From Halalkalibacterium halodurans (GTDB lineage: Bacteria; Bacillota; Bacilli; Bacillales; Bacillaceae_D): a DNA stretch of 32,000 nt. Of the stretch, positions 16,518 through 32,000 are shown piece by piece. Each line of letters begins with the position of its first letter. Position 1 is the stretch's first letter. The stretch lies in assembly GCF_004376175.1 (NCBI RefSeq), contig NZ_SNUY01000024.1, forward strand, positions 18,583 through 50,582, written 5' to 3'. The translations under genes and the position numbers were made by a program. The notes beneath the pieces are model-generated. The model made no database searches. It saw only the letters and a list, made by a program, of their open reading frames with translations, and was not told the origin of the DNA.

Positions 16518-17594
16518 TTGGGGGTCATTGTCTATAAATGTTTAAATTGTGGTGGGCCACTGGAATTCAAGGCAGAGTCTCAAAAGAGGGAGTGTGAATA
16601 CTGTTTAAGCGATTTTAGTGCAGAGGACATGAAGCGCTTTGAGGATGAGCAAAAGTCACAAGCAGTGGCAGAAATGGATACAGAAACATTCGAAAAAGAG
16701 AAGGGACAAGAGATTGAATTTGTAGAAAAATCGAAGAGTTATAGCTGCAAAAGCTGCGGGGCGGAAATTGTAACGGAGGAAACGACGGCTGCAACTTTTT
16801 GTTACTACTGTCATAATCCGACGATCATTCCCGGACAATTATCAGGAGACTATCGCCCAGCACAAGTGATTCCTTTTCAAATTACGAAAGAACAAGCGGA
16901 AGAATCGTTCGTTCAATGGTGTAACAAAAAACCCCTTTTGTCCAAATACTTTACATTGCCTTCGCAACTCGAGAAATTATCGGGAATTTATGTCCCTTTT
17001 TGGCTCTTTGATTGCGATACATTAGGGAGCATTGATGCAGAAGCAACGAAATCACGATCGTATACTCGAGGAAATATGCGTTACACAGAAACAAAATATT
17101 ATCGAGTGATCAGAGAAGGGAAAGCAGATTATCGAAAAGTCCCTGCTGATGGTTCAACAAAAATGGATGAGAAGCTCATGGGTGGACTTGAACCTTATGA
17201 TTATGCAGATTTAAAGGATTTTTCCATGTCTTATTTATCGGGCTATCTAGCGGAAAAGTATGATCTCAATCAAAATGATGTGTACGGTCGAATATCGGAT
17301 GTCATCCGGCAGCATACAAGCTCTCTGCTTCGGCAAACGATCAAGGGGTATGGGAGTGTTTCGATCAAAGATTCATCGTTTAATATTAAGAAAGTTGATG
17401 CGACCTATGTATTGCTCCCTGTCTGGATGTTCACATACCAATACAAAGGCAAGACGTACGTCTTTGCGATGAACGGGCAAACAGGAAAAATTTCCAGAAA
17501 CCTCCCAATTAGTATGAAACGAGCTGCTGCATGGTTCGGGATTGTTACCGGAGCGTCGTTTCTCACGATGTTAATTGGAGGATGGGTATTATGA
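16518..17594 (+). CDS. Zn-ribbon membrane protein (YdjG-like), C-terminal TM anchor
   Basis: TTG start 8 nt after AGGAGGGG. Two CxxC...CxxC ribbons (CLNCGG...CEYC and CKSCGA...CYYCHN) and a C-terminal TM segment (AAWFGIVTGASFLTMLIGGWVL). Confidence 0.75.
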   Translation: MGVIVYKCLNCGGPLEFKAESQKRECEYCLSDFSAEDMKRFEDEQKSQAVAEMDTETFEKEKGQEIEFVEKSKSYSCKSCGAEIVTEETTAATFCYYCHNPTIIPGQLSGDYRPAQVIPFQITKEQAEESFVQWCNKKPLLSKYFTLPSQLEKLSGIYVPFWLFDCDTLGSIDAEATKSRSYTRGNMRYTETKYYRVIREGKADYRKVPADGSTKMDEKLMGGLEPYDYADLKDFSMSYLSGYLAEKYDLNQNDVYGRISDVIRQHTSSLLRQTIKGYGSVSIKDSSFNIKKVDATYVLLPVWMFTYQYKGKTYVFAMNGQTGKISRNLPISMKRAAAWFGIVTGASFLTMLIGGWVL

Positions 17595-18406
17595 GTAATG
17601 TGGTCATGAAGCTATTTTATCGTATGGGTATCGCCATTATGTTACTTATTACATTCTCGAATCCGGTAAACAGTGCCACGCCTCATGTTTATGATCATGC
17701 TAAGCTCTTTACTGATTCAGAACGGGATGATTTGGAGCAGCAAGCAACAACACTTTCAGAACAGGTTCAATTGGATATTGCCGTAGTTACGATCGATGAC
17801 AATGCTGGGAAAACAGCTGAGGAAAATGCAATGGACTTTTTTGACGAGCATGATTTAGGTTACGAGGATGGTGAAGACAGTGTCCTTCTTCTCATTGACA
17901 TGGACGGTCGGGAAGTCTTTATATTGACGAGCGGGCTCGGGAGCAAATATTTAACAGATCAACGACTGGACTTAGTTTTGGATGACATCTATCCTTATTT
18001 ATCTGAACAGAATTACACCTCTGCGGTGGAGTTTTTCTTAACAGGGGTCAACGAATACGTTCAACAAGGAATACCTGCGGGCCAACACACAGTAGTAGTA
18101 AGCGAAAAAACCGAAACGAGCTTAGCCTATAAATTATTAGTATACCTTGGTATTTCGAGCGTAATCGGGTTGCTGGTTGTCGGGGGAATGGCAACGAAAA
18201 ATCGAAGCACGTCTAGTATAAGTAAGGGAACTTATTTGTTAAAAGATTCGTTTCGGTTGATTCGACACGAGGATCGCCACTACAATACGAAAGTGACAAA
18301 GCGGAGAATTCAGACGCAGTCCTCTAGCGGGTCGCGTCCAGGACGATCGACGGTCCGAAGCTCTAGTAGTGGCCGATCATATGGTGGCCGTGGACGAAAG
18401 TTTTAA
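17591..18406 (+). CDS. TPM-domain membrane protein (YdjH/YgcG-like)
   Basis: ATG 17591 overlaps the upstream stop (ATGA). It has a signal/TM segment, a TPM-domain opening motif (HVYDHAKLFTDSERDDLEQ), a second TM segment (LLVYLGISSVIGLLVVGG) and a Ser/Gly/Arg-rich tail. Confidence 0.8.
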   Translation: MSNVVMKLFYRMGIAIMLLITFSNPVNSATPHVYDHAKLFTDSERDDLEQQATTLSEQVQLDIAVVTIDDNAGKTAEENAMDFFDEHDLGYEDGEDSVLLLIDMDGREVFILTSGLGSKYLTDQRLDLVLDDIYPYLSEQNYTSAVEFFLTGVNEYVQQGIPAGQHTVVVSEKTETSLAYKLLVYLGISSVIGLLVVGGMATKNRSTSSISKGTYLLKDSFRLIRHEDRHYNTKVTKRRIQTQSSSGSRPGRSTVRSSSSGRSYGGRGRKF

Positions 18407-18425
18407 TAGAATGATTTTAGGTTTC

Positions 18426-18459
18426 AAAACCTTGAAGGCTTAAGTTTTCAAGGTTTTTT
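18426..18459. terminator. Bidirectional-looking Rho-independent terminator
   Basis: AAAACCTTGAA / TTCAAGGTTTT forms a perfect 11-bp stem with a 10-nt loop. The T-run continues on the + strand, and an A-run precedes the stem. Confidence 0.75.
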
Positions 18460-18671
18460 CGTGTGCCACTTTTGTATCAAAATGATCGTGATAGATTTCT
18501 GTTTTTCGTGCTTGTTGTCTTGCTTCGTAAACTTTTAGAAATCATGTGTTTCGGTTCAGGTATTTTTCTTTTGATGGCTTCGATGATTGGCGGATGTTGT
18601 ATTCGTAAAATGCAGGATGTCTCAACCATTAGTCAAAACCAGCTAAAAGTTTAATAAAAAAGATTCACGCT

Positions 18672-18699
18672 TTGTTAACAGGGAATAAATTGGTAAAAT
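18672..18699 (+). promoter_or_regulatory. Candidate SigA promoter for the HD-domain gene
   Basis: TTGTTA, a 16-nt spacer, then TAAAAT, with a TGg extended -10 element. Confidence 0.4.
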
Positions 18700-18750
18700 G
18701 AAGGAGTGGTACGAGTGAATGGCGAATGATTAATGATGAGGAGGAGTAAA

Positions 18751-19728
18751 ATGAAATTAGTAGATTCCATTTATGGTACGTATACGGTAGAACCTGTCAT
18801 TTCGGAGCTGATCGATTCAGCGCCAGTACAACGATTAAAAGGTATTCATCAGGGTGGAGCGTGCTATTTAGTAAAACCATCATGGAATGTGACTCGCTTT
18901 GAGCATTCGATTGGGGTCATGCTCCTTATTCGGAAGTTAGGAGGCTCTCTTGAAGAGCAAATCGCCGGGTTACTCCATGATGTCTCTCATACCGCTTTTT
19001 CCCATGTGATTGATTATGTATTAGCGGAAGAGGAGGAAGACTATCACGAGCAAATTTACGAGCAAGTGATACGGGCTTCCGAGATTCCACACATTTTAGA
19101 CAAGTACGGCTTTGACTTAGAACGAATCGTCCTTAATCATTCGTGCTGGACTTTACTAGAGCAACCCTCACCGTCTCTATGTGCTGATCGAATCGATTAT
19201 ACACTTCGGGATTTATACACTTATGGTCATATTAACAAACAAGAAGTGGATGATTTTATCGCTAATTTGATTGTTGTAGATGGAATCATTAGCACGTCTT
19301 CTGTTGCAGGGGCTGAGTGGTTTGTAAGAGCATACTACAAGGAAGTGATTGATTTCTTTTTAGATCCATTGAACGTATACGGTTCGTCTGTTTTAACATC
19401 AGTGCTAAAGAGTGCCGTTGAACGAAAAGCACTAGGCCTAGATGACTTTTTAAAAACAGACGAAGAACTCATGGAGCAATTACAACGATTGAACGATGAC
19501 TCGATCCAAAAGCAGCTTGCTACCCTCCATCCACACGTTAACGTTCGCGAAAATGAAAATCACTACCATATTCATAAAACGAACAAGCTCCGGCTAATTG
19601 ATCCTCATGTGTATCTAGATGGAACATTTCAACGAATATCCTCACTCTCTAAACAGGTGAAAAAGTGGAATGAAGAAGCTCAGAGACGAGCGGATCGAGG
19701 GGCTTATGTGGAGGTTTTGTCCTCGTAA
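18751..19728 (+). CDS. HD-domain metal-dependent phosphohydrolase
   Basis: HD motifs are FEHSIGV and LLHDVSHTAFSH, and a downstream D is present (CADRIDYTLRD). ATG 18751 lies 7 nt after AGGAGGAG. Confidence 0.85.
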   Translation: MKLVDSIYGTYTVEPVISELIDSAPVQRLKGIHQGGACYLVKPSWNVTRFEHSIGVMLLIRKLGGSLEEQIAGLLHDVSHTAFSHVIDYVLAEEEEDYHEQIYEQVIRASEIPHILDKYGFDLERIVLNHSCWTLLEQPSPSLCADRIDYTLRDLYTYGHINKQEVDDFIANLIVVDGIISTSSVAGAEWFVRAYYKEVIDFFLDPLNVYGSSVLTSVLKSAVERKALGLDDFLKTDEELMEQLQRLNDDSIQKQLATLHPHVNVRENENHYHIHKTNKLRLIDPHVYLDGTFQRISSLSKQVKKWNEEAQRRADRGAYVEVLSS

Positions 19729-19803
19729 GGTCATAGTTTAAACTTATTGAAGGGTATAATAAATGATAGCAGGTAATTAAAGGGAAAGAAGTAGGGTGAT
19801 GAG

Positions 19804-20964
19804 ATGATGGCCATTATACAGTTGAATGAATCTCACTATGACGAAGTTCTTAATCTATCAAGCTATGCTTTTCAATATCCATTGACCCAAAGCGAGAGAC
19901 AAGAACGTGCGATTATTTTAAAGGAACAAGACATTTACGGTATTTTTCATGATGAACAATTGGCAGCAAAGCTACATATTTATCCATTCCAAATATGGTT
20001 TAATGGTCAGAAAATAGAGATGGGTGGTATTGCTGGTGTCGCAACGTATCCTGAATATAGGCGTCAAGGTTTTGTTAAAGATTTGCTGCTTCACTCATTA
20101 CGAGAGATGAGGCGCAATGGTCAATCCGTTTCGATCCTCCACCCTTTTTCAATCCCATTTTACCGAAAGTATGGCTGGGAGCTTTTTTCTTATTATGTTT
20201 CGGTTGACTTTTCAGTTAAGGAGCTAGTTCTTATGGAGGAGCCCTCAGGATATATGAGGCGACGTACCGCTAAGGCTACGCTTGCAGAGCTTCGTACGAT
20301 TTACGATGAATATGCAAAAACGTATTCAGGGATACTTGATCGCAAGGACTCTTGGTGGCAACAGAAGGTCGTAAACGATTGTGAAATAGCCATTTATTAT
20401 ACTAAAGAAGGAAGCCCTACTGGGTATATTCTTTATCAAGTGAAAGACGCAAAGATGATCATAGATGAGTTTGTAGCCCTCCAACATGAGGCTCGGCTAG
20501 GATTATGGAATTTTATTTGTCAACACGATTCAATGGTACAAACGATTACCATTACGTTACAAGAACATGATCCACTGCTATATACTTGCTTGCACGTCAA
20601 AGAGCGCATTGAACAAAAGCCCTTCGGCATGGTGAGGATTGTGGATGTTCAGCGTTTTTTAACACAATGTCCATTTTTATTGAAAGAGAATGACGAACCG
20701 TTGTTTTTGCATGTTTTGGATAAACAAGCACCATGGAATCGAGGGGTATTTAAATTGACGGAGGGCACTTGTACGAAAGTGGATGAATTTGCAGGGAACC
20801 GAGCGGTAGTCATTGAAATAAATCATTTAAGTGCGCTTTTATTCGGATACAAAACAGTGATTGATCTTTTAGCAATTGAAGCTGTAAACGGCCCAGAGGG
20901 GGAAATTGAACGGCTTGCGCGGATGATTCCAAGAAGGCGTCCGTTACTTTTTGACTTCTTCTAA
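19804..20964 (+). CDS. GNAT N-acetyltransferase of the Eis-like (GNAT + SCP2-like C-terminal domain) type
   Basis: Acetyl-CoA binding motif GIAGVATYPEYRRQGF. The ~386-aa length and the FGMVRIVD... C-terminal domain are typical of Eis-family enzymes. Confidence 0.8.
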   Translation: MMAIIQLNESHYDEVLNLSSYAFQYPLTQSERQERAIILKEQDIYGIFHDEQLAAKLHIYPFQIWFNGQKIEMGGIAGVATYPEYRRQGFVKDLLLHSLREMRRNGQSVSILHPFSIPFYRKYGWELFSYYVSVDFSVKELVLMEEPSGYMRRRTAKATLAELRTIYDEYAKTYSGILDRKDSWWQQKVVNDCEIAIYYTKEGSPTGYILYQVKDAKMIIDEFVALQHEARLGLWNFICQHDSMVQTITITLQEHDPLLYTCLHVKERIEQKPFGMVRIVDVQRFLTQCPFLLKENDEPLFLHVLDKQAPWNRGVFKLTEGTCTKVDEFAGNRAVVIEINHLSALLFGYKTVIDLLAIEAVNGPEGEIERLARMIPRRRPLLFDFF

Positions 20965-20966
20965 AC

Positions 20967-20996
20967 GTTACTGCAAGGGAGCTCCCTTGCAGTAAC
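20967..20996. terminator. 30-bp perfect palindrome / strong hairpin between convergent genes
   Basis: GTTACTGCAAGGGAGCTCCCTTGCAGTAAC is self-complementary over all 30 nt (13-bp stem, AGCT centre). No proper U-tract follows on either strand. Confidence 0.5.
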
Positions 20997-21009
20997 CATC
21001 GCTTTGCCT

Positions 21010-21032
21010 AAAAAACCGCACGTATTGTACGG
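21010..21032 (-). terminator. Rho-independent terminator of the small peptide gene (minus strand)
   Basis: The minus-strand RNA reads CCGUAC-AAUAC-GUGCGG (6-bp GC-rich stem with one U-G pair) followed by UUUUUU. It lies 15 nt after the TAA. Confidence 0.5.
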
Positions 21033-21047
21033 CGGATGAAAATATAA

Positions 21048-21173
21048 TTAATGCATATAAGGCAAGTTGTTTCCAAGAGAAGTAATAACATCTTGGCTCA
21101 CAGCATCAAAGGAGCCAATCGTAAATACACCTAAAACTAATGTCGCAACAAATAAACCTTTTACCATTTTCAT
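21048..21173 (-). CDS. 41-aa secreted pro-peptide, PapR-like candidate quorum-sensing signal
   Basis: The peptide is MKMVKGLFVATLVLGVFTIGSFDAVSQDVITSLGNNLPYMH. The SD (AAAGGGGAAA) lies 6 nt upstream, there is an N-terminal signal peptide with an FDA|V-type cleavage site, and the gene has its own terminator. The C-terminal LPYMH resembles the PapR LPFEF/LPFEH pherotypes. It is divergent from a PlcR-like regulator and is not in the ORF track because it is under 60 aa. Confidence 0.6.
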   Translation of the reverse strand: MKMVKGLFVATLVLGVFTIGSFDAVSQDVITSLGNNLPYMH

Positions 21174-21317
21174 GAAGTATTTCCCCTTTCGTGTAGGTTT
21201 ACAATTAGTATAAACGAAAAATGGGTGGAAAAAAAAAGCGAAAAGAATGAAAATACAGGGTTTTTACGCGATTTCTAAACCAAATTACGGAATTATCTAG
21301 TTCTCTTGTATGGGCTT

Positions 21318-21331
21318 ATTAATATATTAAT
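21318..21331. promoter_or_regulatory. 14-bp perfect palindrome just upstream of the regulator's SD
   Basis: ATTAATATATTAAT is fully self-complementary. It ends 8 nt before GGAGGG and 19 nt before ATG 21351. It is AT-rich, so it could also be part of a -10 region. Confidence 0.3.
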
Positions 21332-21350
21332 TTTTACTTGGAGGGCTATT

Positions 21351-22244
21351 ATGGAGACATTATCGGTTGGACATAAAATTAAGACGCTTAGACAGTCCTT
21401 AGGGTTATCACAGCGCGATTTAGCTGAAGGGATTTGCACTCAAGCGTTAATCAGTCATATTGAAAAAAACAAAACGACGCCTACAGTTGATGTCTTTTTT
21501 AATATTGCCAAAAAGCTCGGAGCCCCAGCAGATTATTTCTTGGAAACGCATGACAATTCCTTAGATTATATTTTGGAAGTACAGTACCAAATACGGAAAC
21601 AAGTGCAAGAGCACAATTATGAGGAAGCACTTAACATTATTAAGACAGAACAGAAAAATCCGATTTTTAACAACAGCAAATATTTGCAATTTTTATTGTG
21701 GCATGAAGCGATTTGTGAATATTCTCTAAACAAAAGATATAACGAAGCAGTGGAAGCGATTGAAGAAGCACTTAAACTTACTCATAAAGAAGGGAATTCT
21801 TATTCTGAGCGGGAAATTGAAATTTTGATTAGTCTCGCTAACTTTCATGACTCAGAGAAGAAATACAATCTCTCGACAAAAATCTACAAAGACATCAATG
21901 ATTCTTTAAAGGCATTAAACTATCTATCCGATCGAAAAATTCAACTTCGATTTTTATTTAATTATTCGTTAAACCGAAACAATGTTAAGAGATATAAGGA
22001 AGCAATTGATTTGTGTAACAAAGGCATTATTCTTTGTAAGCAGCATGGATTTTTATATTCATTCGGAGAATTCCATTATCAAAAAGGGCAAAACTTGATT
22101 GATCTTGGACGAAAAAAAGAAGCAGTGAAGTTTTTAGAAAAAGCAAAAATGATTTTCGACATTCAGGACAACGAGTTGTTTGCTAACATTGCAGATAAGG
22201 AGATCAAAAAACTGCAAAAATCGCTAGAAATGACAGTTAGCTAA
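21351..22244 (+). CDS. RRNPP-family transcriptional regulator, PlcR-like (XRE HTH + TPR peptide-binding domain)
   Basis: The N-terminal HTH (VGHKIKTLRQSLGLSQRDLAEGICTQALISHIEKNKTTPTVDVFFNIAKKLGAPADYF) is colinear with my recollection of B. cereus PlcR. It is followed by ~230 aa of TPR-like helices (YEEALNII, YNEAVEAIEEAL, YKEAIDLCNKGI, GEFHYQKGQNL). ATG 21351 lies 5-6 nt after GGAGGG. Confidence 0.8.
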   Translation: METLSVGHKIKTLRQSLGLSQRDLAEGICTQALISHIEKNKTTPTVDVFFNIAKKLGAPADYFLETHDNSLDYILEVQYQIRKQVQEHNYEEALNIIKTEQKNPIFNNSKYLQFLLWHEAICEYSLNKRYNEAVEAIEEALKLTHKEGNSYSEREIEILISLANFHDSEKKYNLSTKIYKDINDSLKALNYLSDRKIQLRFLFNYSLNRNNVKRYKEAIDLCNKGIILCKQHGFLYSFGEFHYQKGQNLIDLGRKKEAVKFLEKAKMIFDIQDNELFANIADKEIKKLQKSLEMTVS

Positions 22245-22264
22245 AAGGCTAACACCATAAAGCA

Positions 22265-22303
22265 AAAAACCTTTTCTTATGTTTACGACAGGGAAAGGTT
22301 TTT
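22265..22303 (+). terminator. Rho-independent terminator of the regulator gene
   Basis: AAAAACCTTTTC / GGAAAGGTTTTT forms a 12-bp stem with one G-U pair and a 15-nt loop, and a T-rich tail follows. Confidence 0.5.
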
Positions 22304-22396
22304 CTTATTTTCACTCGATCTCTTTGAAAAACTGTCCGATATATAGAAAGAGGGGATGAAAAATAGTTAGGGGTTATAGAAATGAGGTGAGGGGAT

Positions 22397-23395
22397 TTGA
22401 ACAACAAAGAGCGATTATTATATGTACAAGACATCTTGCAAAAAGAGACCGATGAGGAGAATGAGTTAACTCTTGAGCAAATTATGACAAAGCTTCATGC
22501 TGTCAAAGGTACGGAAGTCAATAAAAAAACGTTGCGTGATGACTTAAATACCCTTAAAGATTCTGGATTATTTCCAATTGTGGTCAAACAAGAAAAGAAC
22601 GGAGTAGAGAAAACGTACCAACATCGAACGAAATTATTTACCATTCAGGAACTGCGCCTCTTGGCAGATGCTCTTACGACCGCGTCGTTCATCAGCAAAG
22701 AAGAGACTGAGCAAATGATTAACAAATTAAAAAAGCTAACGAGTCATAGGCTAGCAGAACATTTGGATAACCGACTAGTGGTACAGCCAGATCGAGGGAG
22801 TAGGGACGTTCAAGAGCTCATGAAGACCGTTCACTTACTCCATGATGTGATTAAACACGGTGACATCATTCGCTATCAGTATGGGCAACACAATCTTACG
22901 AAAGAATTTACGCTGCGTGAAAATGGGCGTTTTTATACATTAAAATCATATGCACTTATCTGGGATGATCAGAGGTATTATTTAATTGGGGAAGACGAAG
23001 AAGAAGGTCTGATTCGTTATGAACGGGTCGATCAAATGTATCATGTGGAACGAACAGGTGCACTTTTCACATGGCCTGAAAAGTTTGATCTTATGGAATG
23101 GCTTCACACCCACTCTTCTGTAATGACAGAAGAGAAAGAAGACTTGCAGCTTGAATGTCACCTAGATTCCTTGCAAGACGTATTCGATTGTTTAGGTCTT
23201 GATGTAACGATTCAACCGTTAACGGATGAGCGCTTTCTCTTGGCAACGAAGGCTGTCATAGACAAAGGATTGATGGATTGGCTCTTTTCTTTAGGTGGAA
23301 AGGTGAAAGTGATTCATCCACCTAAGCTTGCAGAAGAAATTCAACGGGAAGCAACGGCGATTATAGATCAATATCGATTGTTAGCAAATTCATGA
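22397..23395 (+). CDS. WYL-domain transcriptional regulator (wHTH + WYL + C-terminal extension)
   Basis: TTG start after GAGGTGAGGGGA. There is an N-terminal wHTH-like region, a WYL-type core (YALIWDDQRYYLIGEDEEEGLIRYERVDQM) and a C-terminal WCX-like region. Confidence 0.8.
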   Translation: MNNKERLLYVQDILQKETDEENELTLEQIMTKLHAVKGTEVNKKTLRDDLNTLKDSGLFPIVVKQEKNGVEKTYQHRTKLFTIQELRLLADALTTASFISKEETEQMINKLKKLTSHRLAEHLDNRLVVQPDRGSRDVQELMKTVHLLHDVIKHGDIIRYQYGQHNLTKEFTLRENGRFYTLKSYALIWDDQRYYLIGEDEEEGLIRYERVDQMYHVERTGALFTWPEKFDLMEWLHTHSSVMTEEKEDLQLECHLDSLQDVFDCLGLDVTIQPLTDERFLLATKAVIDKGLMDWLFSLGGKVKVIHPPKLAEEIQREATAIIDQYRLLANS

Positions 23396-23422
23396 CAATA
23401 AAGTTCGATAGAGGGGGATCAT

Positions 23423-23737
23423 ATGGAACGCTGGGAAAAGGTTGGTATATTCGTTCGCGATCATGAAACGGTGACGTTGTTTACAGCTACGGAGCAAGAG
23501 ACGGAGGAGAGAGATGAAGCTGACAGGCAATACAAATGGATTTACTCATGTTATGGACGGAATGGAAAAGTGAATACGTATAGTCAAGAGGAAGAGCACT
23601 TGCTAGATGTTATTGATCAGTTTCATGACAAAGGGTTTTGGGCGTTCATTCCGCTCATAATCGATAAGGACCATACTTATTGGGTAAAACGAGAGATGAA
23701 TCGAAAATTGGAGAAAATGTGGAAATCACATGGATAA
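23423..23737 (+). CDS. Hypothetical 104-aa cytoplasmic protein, no family recognised
   Basis: The ATG lies 7 nt after AGAGGGGGA and 27 nt after the WYL gene's stop. A good terminator follows immediately. The protein is acidic in the N-terminal half and Trp/Lys-rich in the C-terminal half. Confidence 0.6.
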   Translation: MERWEKVGIFVRDHETVTLFTATEQETEERDEADRQYKWIYSCYGRNGKVNTYSQEEEHLLDVIDQFHDKGFWAFIPLIIDKDHTYWVKREMNRKLEKMWKSHG

Positions 23738-23748
23738 CCATTCAAGGG

Positions 23749-23780
23749 AAAGGTGATGTCAATTGGGCATCGCCTTTTTG
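23749..23780 (+). terminator. Rho-independent terminator of the WYL two-gene unit
   Basis: AAGGTGATG / CATCGCCTT forms a 9-bp stem with one G-U pair and a 9-nt loop, followed by TTTTT. Confidence 0.75.
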
Positions 23781-23984
23781 TATGCAGGATTTAAACAAAT
23801 GGTTACCCGAAGGTATATTGTTAAAACGGGGAGGGTAAATGTTTCTGCTTATCATTCAATAACGAACGTCTATAGGGCGTGCCACAATGAAGATAAAACT
23901 TTTCTGGAGTCTACTATAAAGGTGATTGCTTACATTAAGAATCAAAGTCGTAAGTCTACCAGCATCTTTTATCGCTTGTTTTTC

Positions 23985-24014
23985 TTGTGTTTTTATTTTT
24001 GTATGATTTATAAT
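23985..24014 (+). promoter_or_regulatory. Candidate SigA promoter for pxpBC
   Basis: TTGTGT, an 18-nt spacer, then TATAAT (24009-24014). Confidence 0.4.
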
Positions 24015-24038
24015 AGTGAAAAACTATTATTCGGACTA

Positions 24039-24059
24039 TTGTTCTGAATATCAGAACAA
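24039..24059. promoter_or_regulatory. Perfect inverted repeat (candidate operator) between the pxpB promoter and its SD
   Basis: TTGTTCTGA-ATA-TCAGAACAA has 9-bp perfect arms and a 3-bp spacer. It ends 20 nt before ATG 24080. Confidence 0.45.
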
Positions 24060-24079
24060 AGGGGGCGGTTTACATTCAA

Positions 24080-24799
24080 ATGAAAAGTACAGTAAAGATT
24101 CTTCCACTAGGAGAGTCGGCTTTGCTGGTTCAATTTGGAAAAGAGATAGATCCTCATGTTCAGCGAAAAGTGGATGCCTTTATGACCTTGCTTGAAACGC
24201 AGCCATTTCTAGGGATGCTTGAATGTGTACCATCCTATACGAGTGTTGCGGTTTATTACGATATTTTAAAAATAGCGCCCTTGATCGATCATGGTTCCAC
24301 AGCATTCCAAGTTGTTCGAGAACTTGTTAACGAAAAGCTCAAACAGATGAACGAAGGAACGGTGAAGAAACGAAATATCATAGAAATACCTGTGTGCTAT
24401 GGAGGGAGCTATGGCCCGGATTTAAAGGAGGTTGCTCAGCATAATCAGCTTAGCCTAGAAGAGGTTGTGAATATACATGCGAGCAAGGAATATTTAGTGT
24501 ATATGATCGGCTTTGCTCCTGGATTTCCTTATTTAGGGGGAATGTCAAAGCGAATCGCAGCTCCTCGGAGGAAGGAACCGCGGACGCTTATACCAGCTGG
24601 TTCTGTCGGGATTGCTGGCGAACAAACAGGTGTTTATTCCATTGACACACCTGGAGGTTGGCAAATCATTGGAAAAACCCCACTCTCTTTATTTCGACCA
24701 ACAGCAAAACAACCAAGTCTTTTGCAGGCGGGGGACTTTGTTCGCTTTCAACCAATTACAGAGAAAGAATTTATTCGTTTGGAAGGTGAGGAGGCATGA
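24080..24799 (+). CDS. pxpB: 5-oxoprolinase subunit PxpB (KipI / allophanate hydrolase subunit 1 family)
   Basis: KipI-family motifs include the IPVCYGG, MIGFAPGFPYLGG and GGWQIIGKTP cyclophilin-like fold signatures. Confidence 0.9.
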   Translation: MKSTVKILPLGESALLVQFGKEIDPHVQRKVDAFMTLLETQPFLGMLECVPSYTSVAVYYDILKIAPLIDHGSTAFQVVRELVNEKLKQMNEGTVKKRNIIEIPVCYGGSYGPDLKEVAQHNQLSLEEVVNIHASKEYLVYMIGFAPGFPYLGGMSKRIAAPRRKEPRTLIPAGSVGIAGEQTGVYSIDTPGGWQIIGKTPLSLFRPTAKQPSLLQAGDFVRFQPITEKEFIRLEGEEA

Positions 24800-30080: not shown

Positions 30081-32000
30081 TTTCTGCTTGGTTGATAGCG
30101 ATTTTTACAGAAGAACTAGCGTAGAAAAAAATTAAATTAGGCTAAGAGCGGAGAGTGAGTTTACATTTTTTTGAAATTATATTAAAAAAGGGCAGACTAT
30201 CCCCTTGAGGTTGTATGGATGGATAATTTCCATATATTGGTTTTAAGTGGATTCTCTATTATGCCGATAATTTCGTCCAGCCTCGATATAGTTGCCCAGT
30301 TCCTTGAACAGACATATAAGCCAAGGCATGTGCAGTGATCATACATCGATCGACATGAGCTTCGACTGCCAAGCGACCTCTTTTATGTACTCTTCGCATA
30401 CTAAGTCCGTCTTTGGCAATTCCAATAACACGCTCTATCGCAGTTCGTTCTGCGTATTTCTTTTTGAACGATTGGAGGTGTTGTGGGAACTCCGTATCAA
30501 TTTGTGGTGTCATCGATTGATGGATACGAAGCGTTCTACCAGTTTTCGCGCCATTACAGCATTGAATATGCTGTTCATTCGAACAGGAAAGTCCTTCTTG
30601 CTTGTATTTTGGATCAAAGACTGGGCAAGTCCAAACATAGTGTTCTTTTGCTTCATCCAACCCTTTCAATTGTAACTTATGGCCACTAATACAATGAGGA
30701 ACACCATACCTATCCAGCTTGGTCATGCCACAAGATTCAAGTGCTTTATCTTGAATTTTACGTGGATTTATGGGAGCCAATAGCTTTGCTTTAAGAATGG
30801 ATTTTGTGTGTTGTTGATTGTCCGCTGATTGATAAATCCCATCTGCGCTCACGTATTGCACTGTTTTTAGGAACTCTTCAGGAAGATCTTCCGTTACCTT
30901 TTCCAAAGTGGGTTCTAGTGTTTTTGCATCATGTTCGTCTCCTTTAAACACACTTCTGGACAAAGGAAGTTCAGACTCTACACCACAGACCAAGGAGATT
31001 TTATGTGCAATGTACGTGACGGTATTGCTTTTTCTCATCACGCCTACGTTATCATCCGTAGGAATCTTTGGGCAATGACATGGCTCAGAATGGCTACATT
31101 TCTTCATTTTATGGACAGTGGCTTCCGCATCTACATGGGTGGTATCTACAGCGAGTTGTTCTTCTTTTCCTACGATACCGTGAAAAAGATTGTAGCTCAC
31201 CATAAGTTGCCGAGCTTTCTCCCAAAGTCCGTTTTCAATCATGATCTGATCAAAACGTTCAAATGTTTTCAAGGATGGTCGTGTATCAAAACCACAGACC
31301 ATCCGGAAGTCAGAGTTCCCAATAACTTGAAGGTGTACACTGGAAACCATTACTTCCACATAGAGGAGTGGAGCCAAGAGGAAAGCTTTTAATAAAGCAT
31401 AAAAGTTCACTCCTTTTCGTCCTTTGGCAGATCTCGTAGGCAATGTGCTCAAGTCCTGTGGAATATCTGGAAATAATTCTGTTGAAGATGGGGCTGCATC
31501 CGTTGAAGTTCGTTTTTTAAAATGATATTCAAACCGTGCTTGGAGAAATTCTTGTTCAATGGGAGAGAACACCTCCTCCCAAGGAAACTCCAACCCTAAT
31601 TTAACATAAGGAAGGTGACGTAAAGAAGAAAATGAATCTTCTGTAAATGAAAAAGAAGGTTGAAGATAGATTACATTTGAATAAGATTTTGGTATGATAG
31701 AGGTAGTCATAATGAACTCCTTTCGTGATAGTTGCTAGATACTTCTATTCTACCAAAGGAGCACCATTATGGCTTTTCTTTTTGCCTGAATGATCAAAGT
31801 TTCCGTTTTCCATAAAAATCCTGTAAATAACTAGAATGACGATATGGTGAAATGGCTGATTATGGCCAAAAATCGCTAAAATTGAGGTTTGACAAAACAT
31901 AAAGAACTTGATCACGTAAAAAGGTATGGGAACACATCTATAGTAGCAAATTGAATGGAATCAGTAATATCAAGGGTTACAGAAATTTGTCCTGTGGCTC
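30061..32000 (-). mobile_element. IS4-family insertion sequence (about 1.94 kb or more, reaches the window end)
   Basis: There is a single DDE transposase gene. Imperfect terminal inverted repeats are present. The left end is GAGCGTCCGGACAAAATTAATTTCTGCTTGGTTGATA (30061-30097). The reverse complement of the right end is GAGCCACAGGACAAATTTCTGTAACCCTTGATA (32000-31968). They share the blocks GAGC, GGACAAA, TTTCTG and TTGATA. The element interrupts acoB. Confidence 0.8.
30259..31710 (-). CDS. IS4-family DDE transposase
   Basis: DDE candidates are LAVDTTHVDA, VSADGIYQS and the exact Y-(2)-R-(3)-E-(6)-K signature in YAERTAIERVIGIAK. A Cys-rich insertion lies between the second D and the E. The SD is AAAGGAG. 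Confidence 0.9.
   Translation of the reverse strand: MTTSIIPKSYSNVIYLQPSFSFTEDSFSSLRHLPYVKLGLEFPWEEVFSPIEQEFLQARFEYHFKKRTSTDAAPSSTELFPDIPQDLSTLPTRSAKGRKGVNFYALLKAFLLAPLLYVEVMVSSVHLQVIGNSDFRMVCGFDTRPSLKTFERFDQIMIENGLWEKARQLMVSYNLFHGIVGKEEQLAVDTTHVDAEATVHKMKKCSHSEPCHCPKIPTDDNVGVMRKSNTVTYIAHKISLVCGVESELPLSRSVFKGDEHDAKTLEPTLEKVTEDLPEEFLKTVQYVSADGIYQSADNQQHTKSILKAKLLAPINPRKIQDKALESCGMTKLDRYGVPHCISGHKLQLKGLDEAKEHYVWTCPVFDPKYKQEGLSCSNEQHIQCCNGAKTGRTLRIHQSMTPQIDTEFPQHLQSFKKKYAERTAIERVIGIAKDGLSMRRVHKRGRLAVEAHVDRCMITAHALAYMSVQGTGQLYRGWTKLSA

Follow-up and report, generated by a model that had tools for sequence, protein, structure and literature searches.

A candidate peptide quorum-sensing cassette of the PlcR/PlcRa branch in Halalkalibacterium halodurans

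Halalkalibacterium halodurans serves as a model alkaliphile and as an industrial producer of enzymes, and to our knowledge no peptide quorum-sensing system has been characterized in it. Our study asked whether such a system is encoded in a 32,000-nt stretch of its DNA (the window, whose positions serve as coordinates throughout), in which a 41-codon open reading frame (ORF) on the minus strand lies back to back with the gene for a 297-aa regulator on the plus strand. An earlier note, made from the letters of the sequence, had proposed the two as a candidate quorum-sensing pair, comprising a PapR-like pro-peptide and a PlcR-like receptor, and this proposal was supported by every computational test that the note had called for. 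The two genes, orthologues of BH1813 and BH1814, very probably form a self-contained quorum-sensing cassette of the RRNPP type that belongs to the PlcR/PlcRa branch. Each has its own ribosome-binding site (RBS) and terminator, and the locus is therefore read as two monocistronic genes in divergent orientation. Our analysis established the receptor's homology and fold, showed that the peptide gene is conserved, under coding constraint and of a secretion-type architecture, and revealed co-variation of the pair at positions homologous to the PlcR pocket.

The regulator and its pro-peptide

The window regulator, a protein identical to WP_134229471.1, is an RRNPP receptor as judged from sequence profiles and a modelled structure. 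The combination of an XRE helix-turn-helix (HTH) with tetratricopeptide repeats (TPRs) that the earlier note had described was recovered by Pfam, which matched HTH_3 (48.4 bits against a cut-off of 23, E 1e-12, residues 10-63), RNPP_C (PF18768; 55.3 bits against a gathering cut-off of 26.5, E 8e-15, residues 81-281) and several TPR models. A phmmer search against the PDB matched PlcR (2qfc) over residues 4-288 (E 1.8e-15), all other matches being restricted to the HTH. The resulting alignment pairs LQFLLWHEA with QQFLQWQYY and GEFHYQKGQ with GQLYYQRGE, exactly the colinearity with PlcR that the earlier note had described. Comparison by hhalign of a profile of 17 family members with one of 11 PlcR homologues (bona fide PlcRs and three more distant proteins) returned a probability of 100, an E value of 2e-45 and 23 % identity over 285 columns. 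The AlphaFold2 model was all-helical (pLDDT 91.9, pTM 0.75) and its top PDB matches in Foldseek were the PlcR structures 3u3w, 2qfc and 4fsc (E 6e-11 to 1e-7, TM 0.66-0.74), followed by ComR, Rgg2 and PrgX. The profile and structure searches thus place the regulator inside the RRNPP group. NCBIfam held no specific model for either the regulator or the 41-aa peptide.

The label 'PlcR-like' is correct as far as homology is concerned, but the closest characterized relative, by sequence, is probably of the PlcRa type rather than PlcR itself. WP_042970344.1, a 297-aa protein from plasmid pBMB431 of B. thuringiensis HD-1 that is 28 % identical to PlcR, carries K89, Q161, N205, K208 and Y280, the residues given for PlcRa (PMC3519770). 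The window regulator is 34 % identical to this protein (142 bits, E 3e-45), compared with 26 % (70.9 bits) for PlcR (P0134). The placement was made through a proxy because the sequence of the chromosomal PlcRa, BC0988, was not obtained, and the comparator is a presumed plasmid paralogue picked by its PlcRa-specific residues. BC0988 was not returned by searches with the regulator, with the family profile (which found its own family only) or with a PlcR query (which found PlcR orthologues only). The motif WHEAI is common to the window regulator (LLWHEAIC), the pBMB431 protein (LIWHEAIA) and a PlcRa primer printed in PMC3519770 (LMWHEAIA). The window equivalents of the five PlcRa residues are H88, I160, N204, L207 and F277, so that only the Asn is retained; this backbone-binding residue (PlcR N201, PlcRa N205) is Asn in 46 of 54 family members (alignment A2).

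A tblastn search against plasmids found homologues at 33-35 % identity on 116 plasmids, mostly from the B. cereus group. The pBMB431 protein and its counterpart on B. cereus pLVP1401 are 297-aa PlcRa-type paralogues without an adjacent pro-peptide gene (loci L084 and L085), and next to the former are genes for a TasA-family protein and an S8 peptidase.

The product of the minus-strand ORF is MKMVKGLFVATLVLGVFTIGSFDAVSQDVITSLGNNLPYMH, followed by a stop codon. Its Shine-Dalgarno (SD) sequence with 6-nt spacing and its NNLPYMH tail were present as described in the earlier note, as was the shape of a signal peptide, with two Lys among residues 1-5 providing a basic N-terminus ahead of a 15-residue hydrophobic core. 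Between positions 20500 and 22800 this was the sole small ORF to pass a simple filter for a signal peptide and an SD sequence. The stem-loop at 21033-21015 with its run of six U residues, also described before, has a folding energy (dG) of -9.8 kcal/mol; the terminator of the regulator gene (22265-22303) has a dG of -14 kcal/mol and a z-score of -3.9. An Rfam scan of the whole window found zero RNA families, and the small-ORF region is therefore not a known small RNA or riboswitch. The description 'unannotated' holds for the ORF track alone, as the identical 41-aa protein is publicly deposited as the 'hypothetical protein' BH1813 (BAB05532.1) of H. halodurans C-125. There it adjoins BH1814 at about 1.887-1.890 Mb of genome BA000004.3, and it was found in about 30 assemblies.

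The adjacent peptide in related loci

Conservation of the small ORF beside related regulators was examined by scanning one genome per species, which found more than 559 relatives, and by inspecting the best 79 loci (35-41 % identity). An adjacent small ORF of 37-75 aa with a signal-peptide-like N-terminus and an SD sequence was present in 61 of the 79, spread over many genera. These 61 ORFs end in the motif [LI]Pxx(x)[H/Y/F/L] with at most three residues beyond, most simply written as a shared [LI]Pxx[HYF] C-terminus. The ending [LI]Pxx(x)[HYFL] was found in 136 of 6697 other small ORFs of the related loci (2.0 %), and the occurrence of the motif next to the regulators is far beyond chance. 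Examples include LRLPYQH (Aneurinibacillus), EDLPHRH (Alkalihalobacterium), EDLPYCH (Guptibacillus), GLPSQH (Priestia megaterium), DALPFEH, LELPLMH and DLPYIH(T), while ELPxx[Y/F/H] peptides are numerous in Peribacillus, Rossellomorea and Cytobacillus.

The peptide gene was upstream and divergent in 46 of the 61 loci, downstream and convergent in 10 and downstream and codirectional in 5, which makes the divergent layout the rule for this clade. The earlier note was right that this layout differs from that of plcR-papR, but it is not unusual, since the majority of the clade shares it and the peptide gene of PlcRa-PapRa also lies upstream. The length of the divergent intergenic region is conserved as well (about 177-200 bp, median 195 bp), and the distance of about 177 bp given for the window proved to be exact.

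Many homologues contain two to five tandem copies of the motif, and some of these abut directly, as in ELPSVY-ELPSVY, ELPGLY-ELPGLY and ELPSIH-ELPSIH (ELPSVYELPSVY, ELPGLYELPGLY and ELPSIHELPSIH). Further repeats among loci L013-L078 are ELPPVY five times in L078, ELPPML three times in L065 and ELPSIY three times in L033, with another case in L071. As the copies abut directly, the unit has six residues, which suggests, by analogy, that the signal is a hexapeptide, here NLPYMH. The heptapeptide NNLPYMH is also possible as the mature form; the active form of PapR is a heptapeptide (PMC2441798).

These peptides also bear upon the idea that the small ORF specifies a micro-protein, either secreted or anchored in the membrane, or a precursor resembling a bacteriocin or a ribosomally synthesized and post-translationally modified peptide, whose proximity to the regulator is regulatory or coincidental. 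In favour of this idea, the window peptide has no family annotation, and a homologous small ORF on plasmid pBpOF4-01 of Alkalihalophilus pseudofirmus OF4 lies immediately upstream of biosynthesis genes of the thiazole/oxazole-modified microcin (TOMM)/YcaO type. However, conservation among the small ORFs is limited to the last five to seven residues, which resemble PapR and PapRa7 (LPFEF, IPYEY), and the tandem motif repeats are typical of pheromone precursors (PMC9765709, PMC11343458). Moreover, pocket residues of the receptor co-vary with the motif, and no modification or export genes adjoin the ORF in the window. We consider this explanation very improbable and regard the ORF as a probable pheromone gene.

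The pBpOF4-01 locus (NC_013792.1) is of interest in its own right. Its divergent small ORF, MKNLLIMGIFFSLCLGSMEMIHTASILTPLDLPYIHT (L086:1651-1764), is absent from the PLSDB gene table, and the regulator beside it, WP_012961173.1, is 35 % identical to that of the window. On the strand of the small ORF, a 46-aa hypothetical gene, a gene for a TOMM leader-peptide-binding protein and a YcaO gene follow, and the locus may be a thiazole/oxazole peptide cluster under quorum-sensing control.

Other features of the related loci were also recorded. In 35 loci of the ELPxx[Y/F/H] (ELP) clade the peptide gene is followed on its own strand by a conserved ORF of 104 aa (e.g. L013:2139-2453), a possible co-transcribed target, and in loci of Alkalihalobacterium and A. 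macyae an ORF of ~324-341 aa, subtilisin-like on inspection of its sequence, is divergent from the regulator (L002:1843-2817). In the Rossellomorea group, L048-L050, L055-L059, L063, L064, L069 and L079 had no detectable adjacent signal-peptide ORF and may represent orphan receptors; many Rossellomorea carry several regulator paralogues per genome. Most of these peptide-less loci have an upstream ORF on the same strand ending in DPDGLPLELYE, which was taken as a coincidental motif match.

Alleles and co-variation of peptide and receptor

The earlier note had called for a search for co-variation between the small ORF and the regulator, and our study found it both within the species and across genera. 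Eleven H. halodurans loci were examined, namely the window, six further loci with LPYMH and four with LPYMN. Comparison of the window with a locus of the second allele (L082) revealed seven differing codons in the peptide gene, six of them synonymous and one non-synonymous, which changes the last residue (H41N). The ratio of non-synonymous to synonymous substitution rates (dN/dS) is 0.04 for the peptide gene, where the probability of at most one non-synonymous change in seven under neutrality is 7e-4, and 0.11 for the regulator. Both genes are under strong purifying selection.

Of the 18 residues that differ between the two regulator alleles, 12 fall within residues 123-161. The synonymous rate (dS) is zero at residues 1-80, about 0.4 at 81-119 and 166-297, and saturated at 120-165, compared with 0.03 in the neighbouring acetyltransferase gene. 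This patchiness indicates that the alleles are old and mosaic. Linkage was perfect in the sample, LPYMH occurring with S161 (the window and six loci) and LPYMN with N161 and the 12-substitution patch (four loci). Residue 161 aligns with PlcR A160 in both the phmmer and the MAFFT alignment, and A160 contacts residue 7 of PapR (PMC2441798). In PlcR pherotype IV, A160S together with N163S was modelled to hydrogen-bond His7 of SDLPFEH (PMC2441798). Because residue 161 occupies the PlcR A160 position, the last residue of the peptide and its predicted contact residue have changed together. A specificity region with saturated dS beside an identical HTH-coding part points to long-term balancing selection with recombination. 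On these sequence comparisons we tentatively propose, as a reading that may or may not hold, that H. halodurans keeps two old, mutually specific pherotypes, NLPYMH with S161 and NLPYMN with N161 and the 12-substitution TPR patch.

In a wider comparison of the window with L080-L083, from other H. halodurans strains, divergence amounted to 5-18 % per 200 bp over 20800-24700 and to <2.5 % in 18600-20800. This island of divergence takes in both genes of the cassette, the WYL/WCX regulator and the 104-aa gene beyond them, and the beginning of a PxpB-like gene, and by its pattern it looks like a recombination mosaic.

The alleles further help to judge whether the cassette is a decaying or silent remnant, orphaned and non-functional after horizontal acquisition. 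The flanks have a GC content of 40-47 % and the regulator one of 32-34 %, the nearest regulator homologues outside the species, which belong to other families, do not exceed 41 % identity, and the surroundings show no regulon. The low GC content and distant relatives are compatible with an old horizontal origin. Against decay, both ORFs are intact in 11/11 H. halodurans loci, both are constrained as described above, and two old alleles have been maintained with unbroken peptide-receptor linkage. A remnant is therefore extremely improbable, and a working cassette remains the preferred reading.

Across genera, raw counts revealed that receptor residue 247 (PlcR 244) is Glu where Arg precedes Leu-Pro in the peptide, Lys where Asp does and Tyr where Glu does; in PlcR the equivalent site anchors the N-terminal part of PapR7. 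At receptor residue 244, Gln goes for the most part with peptides that end in His, and His with peptides ending in Tyr, Phe or Leu. Charge-complementary swaps in separate lineages are what would be predicted of a ligand-receptor pair. The clade thus appears to follow a code in which the signal is a hexapeptide x-L-P-x-x-[H/Y/F], receptor residue 247 is charge-complementary to the residue before Leu-Pro, and receptor residue 244 tracks the C-terminal residue.

Regulatory logic, known systems and genomic context

Export, processing, import, binding and the choice between activation and repression are modelled here on PlcR-PapR and PlcRa-PapRa. By that analogy, the 41-aa pre-pro-peptide would be exported via Sec and its signal peptide removed, and extracellular proteases would trim the short pro-region to a C-terminal oligopeptide, most likely NLPYMH or NNLPYMH. 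At high cell density, an oligopeptide permease would re-import this peptide, and its binding within the concave TPR groove would switch the HTH-mediated DNA binding of the 297-aa regulator. The switched regulator would then alter transcription of its regulon, probably including the promoters of the cassette itself. The features of the locus are collected in Table 1.

Table 1. Coordinates of the cassette and of candidate elements in the window
Feature	Position	Strand	Basis or remark
Pro-peptide gene, BH1813 orthologue	21048..21173	minus	ORF and translation; 41 aa and stop
Sec-like signal peptide, residues 1-24	21102-21173	minus	hydrophobicity heuristic
Predicted mature pheromone at C-terminus, NLPYMH or NNLPYMH	21051-21068 or 21051-21071	minus	
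SD region of peptide gene, AAAGGGGAAA	21180..21189	minus	ATG 6 nt further on
Intrinsic terminator of peptide gene	21009..21033	minus	7-bp stem, 5-nt loop, U6
Divergent intergenic region, 177 bp	21174..21350		both promoters must lie here, operator probably
Possible -10 of peptide promoter, TATACT	21207-21212	minus	
Candidate dyad GTTTA-N9-TAAAC	21197-21215		overlaps possible -10 TATACT
Candidate palindrome TTAATATATTAA	21319-21330		unique in window; ~20 nt upstream of regulator ATG
Regulator RBS, GGAGGG	21340-21345	plus	
RRNPP receptor/transcription factor, BH1814 orthologue, 297 aa	21351..22244	plus	Pfam, phmmer, hhalign, AlphaFold2/Foldseek
XRE HTH, residues 10-63	21378-21539	plus	Pfam HTH_3
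TPR/RNPP_C domain, residues 81-281	21591-22193	plus	Pfam RNPP_C
Allele-variable receptor patch, residues 123-161 incl. S161	21717..21833	plus	allele comparison
Intrinsic terminator of regulator gene	22265..22312	plus	U-rich tract after stem-loop 22265-22303

A scan for consensus sigma-70 promoters found none within the intergenic region, and neither gene has a consensus -35 element there. The dyad GTTTA-N9-TAAAC is a weak candidate operator because its left arm is changed in the second allele (A21201G, T21206C). The B. cereus-type PlcR box TATGNAN4TNCATA was tried as operator and rejected, the window containing 16 matches with at most two mismatches against 18.6 expected; the sole intergenic match (21309-21324) has two mismatches and is altered in the second allele. 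Alignment of the intergenic region with the closest divergent loci, those of Aneurinibacillus, revealed no trustworthy conserved block. A search for enriched dyads found a strong 22-nt element in the ELPxxY clade only, and the window is without it.

This element, AAATATAACTCTAGGCATATTT (AAATAT-N10-ATATTT; e.g. L013:2965-2986), is nearly invariant in the divergent ELP clade of Peribacillus, Rossellomorea, Cytobacillus and Falsibacillus (loci L013-L078) and was exact in 35 of 46 loci. Most loci of the clade have 12-20 nt (typically 13-15) between its end and the regulator ATG, and in some an inverted second copy occurs ~45 nt ahead of the peptide start. The core, TAT-N10-ATA, matches the PlcR box in its 16-bp geometry, and the element is likely to be an operator or promoter element for that clade.

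Such positions raise the question of whether the logic could be inverted, with DNA bound by the apo-regulator, acting as repressor or anti-activator, until the peptide releases or re-shapes it, as exemplified by PrgX and AimR. The ELP-clade dyad, at 13-15 nt before the regulator ATG, would overlap the -10/+1 region, a position more typical of a repression operator; the window palindrome TTAATATATTAA is similarly close to the regulator start; and Foldseek also matched PrgX, ComR and Rgg (E 1e-5 to 1e-7). However, PlcR and PlcRa both require peptide for DNA binding and activation (PMC2441798, PMC3519770), and the window regulator is far nearer to these (26-34 %, full length) than to PrgX or AimR, whose matches are confined to the HTH. 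The absence of a consensus -35 at both promoters also fits dependence upon an activator. Inverted logic is consequently judged unlikely, and a peptide-activated switch is preferred.

Comparison with PlcRa-PapRa, characterized in the B. cereus group by Huillet et al. (2012, PMC3519770), revealed a 297-aa receptor with an XRE HTH, a linker helix and five TPRs in both systems. Both have the peptide gene upstream of that for the regulator, although the orientation of papRa is unstated in that paper, and the peptides share a [I/L]-P-Y-x-[Y/H] core (CSIPYEY for PapRa7, NNLPYMH for the window). PlcRa, PlcRb and PlcRc are about 28-29 % identical to PlcR (PMC3519770), and the window regulator is 26 % identical to it. 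The two systems differ in that PapRa7 is internal in its pro-peptide, whereas the window motif forms the very C-terminus, like that of PapR. Furthermore, abrB2 and cysteine metabolism are the targets of PlcRa, and the surroundings of the window cassette offer nothing comparable. plcRa does not regulate itself, and PlcRa has no known box (PMC3519770).

With PlcR-PapR the cassette shares full-length homology and the top structural match, a pro-peptide whose active part is C-terminal, and a Leu-Pro-aromatic-x-[His/Phe] core (compare SDLPFEH of pherotype IV). A further shared feature is a pherotype-like polymorphism within the species that alters peptide and TPR residues jointly, the equivalent of PlcR A160 among them. 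Nevertheless, the window regulator is not a PlcR orthologue (26 %) and no PlcR orthologue clusters with it; the B. cereus-group PlcR homologues recovered were mostly at least 66 % identical to PDB PlcR, the three most distant full-length ones being 41-48 % identical. papR lies downstream on the same strand, unlike the upstream, divergent peptide gene of the window, and the HTH recognition helix is GICTQALIS in the window and NICHQSEVS in PlcR. The gatekeeper lysines K87 and K89 of PlcR correspond to Q86 and H88, which is in line with Met instead of Glu at peptide position 6. The PlcR box is unenriched and the context is not that of a virulence regulon. Judged by sequence, the cassette has the testable features of RRNPP systems and departs from PlcR proper in orthology, gene order and PlcR box.

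Large catalogues of such systems are already available. Felipe-Ruiz et al. (2022) described 126 PlcR-subfamily pro-peptides with up to six repeats (PMC9765709), and Bernard et al. (2023) reported 11,872 strict RRNPP pairs in 34 clusters (PMC10075063). The catalogued pairs resemble the window cassette in having a small adjacent SEC-type pro-peptide and a 250-500-aa TPR/HTH receptor, and their tandemly repeated mature peptides recall those of the cassette's homologues. Bacillales pheromone genes are placed immediately downstream in PMC9765709, in contrast to the clade of the window, where the divergent upstream position dominates (46/61). The portion of the supplementary text of both papers that was available contained no match to H. 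halodurans, Aneurinibacillus, Peribacillus or an accession, which is not evidence of absence. The 'new' of the earlier note therefore applies to the pair only as an uncharacterized member, since surveys have already listed PlcR-subfamily pairs from beyond the B. cereus group in large numbers (PMC9765709, PMC10075063), and the cassette reveals no new kind of system.

Several points weigh against a functional quorum-sensing cassette. The signal-peptide call on the 41-aa ORF is a hydrophobicity heuristic, and its FDA|VS cleavage site has an atypical Phe at -3. No adjacent peptide was detected for 18 of the 79 related regulators, so that orphan receptors exist in the family, and the cross-genus co-variation consists of counts uncorrected for shared ancestry. 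No operator could be defined, given a PlcR box that is not enriched and whose sole intergenic likeness is unconserved between alleles. No target genes were evident, none of the window's neighbours recurring beside the related regulators compared, and a literature search on the locus tags found no paper mentioning BH1813 or BH1814.

The neighbours in question encode an HD-domain protein, an Eis-like GNAT acetyltransferase, a WYL/WCX regulator, a 104-aa protein and PxpB/C-type carboxyltransferase subunits. As the earlier note had stated, the context is unlike the B. cereus virulence regulon, and the neighbours give no hint of a regulon because none of them accompanies related regulators. Directly downstream of the regulator (22397-23737) are the 332-aa WYL/WCX regulator (WCX 3e-07; WYL weak) and the 104-aa protein, which has no family match; both genes are inside the island of divergence. 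A perfect 30-bp palindrome, GTTACTGCAAGGGAG/CTCCCTTGCAGTAAC (20967-20996; dG -22.9, z -7.3), lies just past the stop codon of the acetyltransferase gene, between that gene and the convergent peptide gene, with no plus-strand U-tract after it. Upstream of the HD-domain gene, the content of 17000-18600 varies between strains, comprising a TPM-phosphatase-domain gene in the window and L082, VanY and a histidine kinase in L080, and a major facilitator superfamily transporter and MarR in L081 and L083. Towards the end of the window (30259-31710) the minus strand carries a gene for a DDE transposase (DDE_Tnp_1).

In summary, the cassette provides a handle for finding density-controlled genes in H. 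halodurans. The comparative data define a large receptor clade nearer to PlcRa than to PlcR, distributed over Bacillaceae and Paenibacillaceae and over chromosomes and plasmids. This clade is marked by a simple pheromone code at the C-terminus (LPxx[H/Y/F]), by mature units that are often repeated in tandem and by receptor residues that track the peptide. It will be useful for annotating short ORFs missed by gene callers and ORF tracks and for studying how signalling specificity diverges. If the two pherotypes and the clade code hold true, they would offer a compact natural data set for the specificity rules of five-TPR RRNPP receptors.

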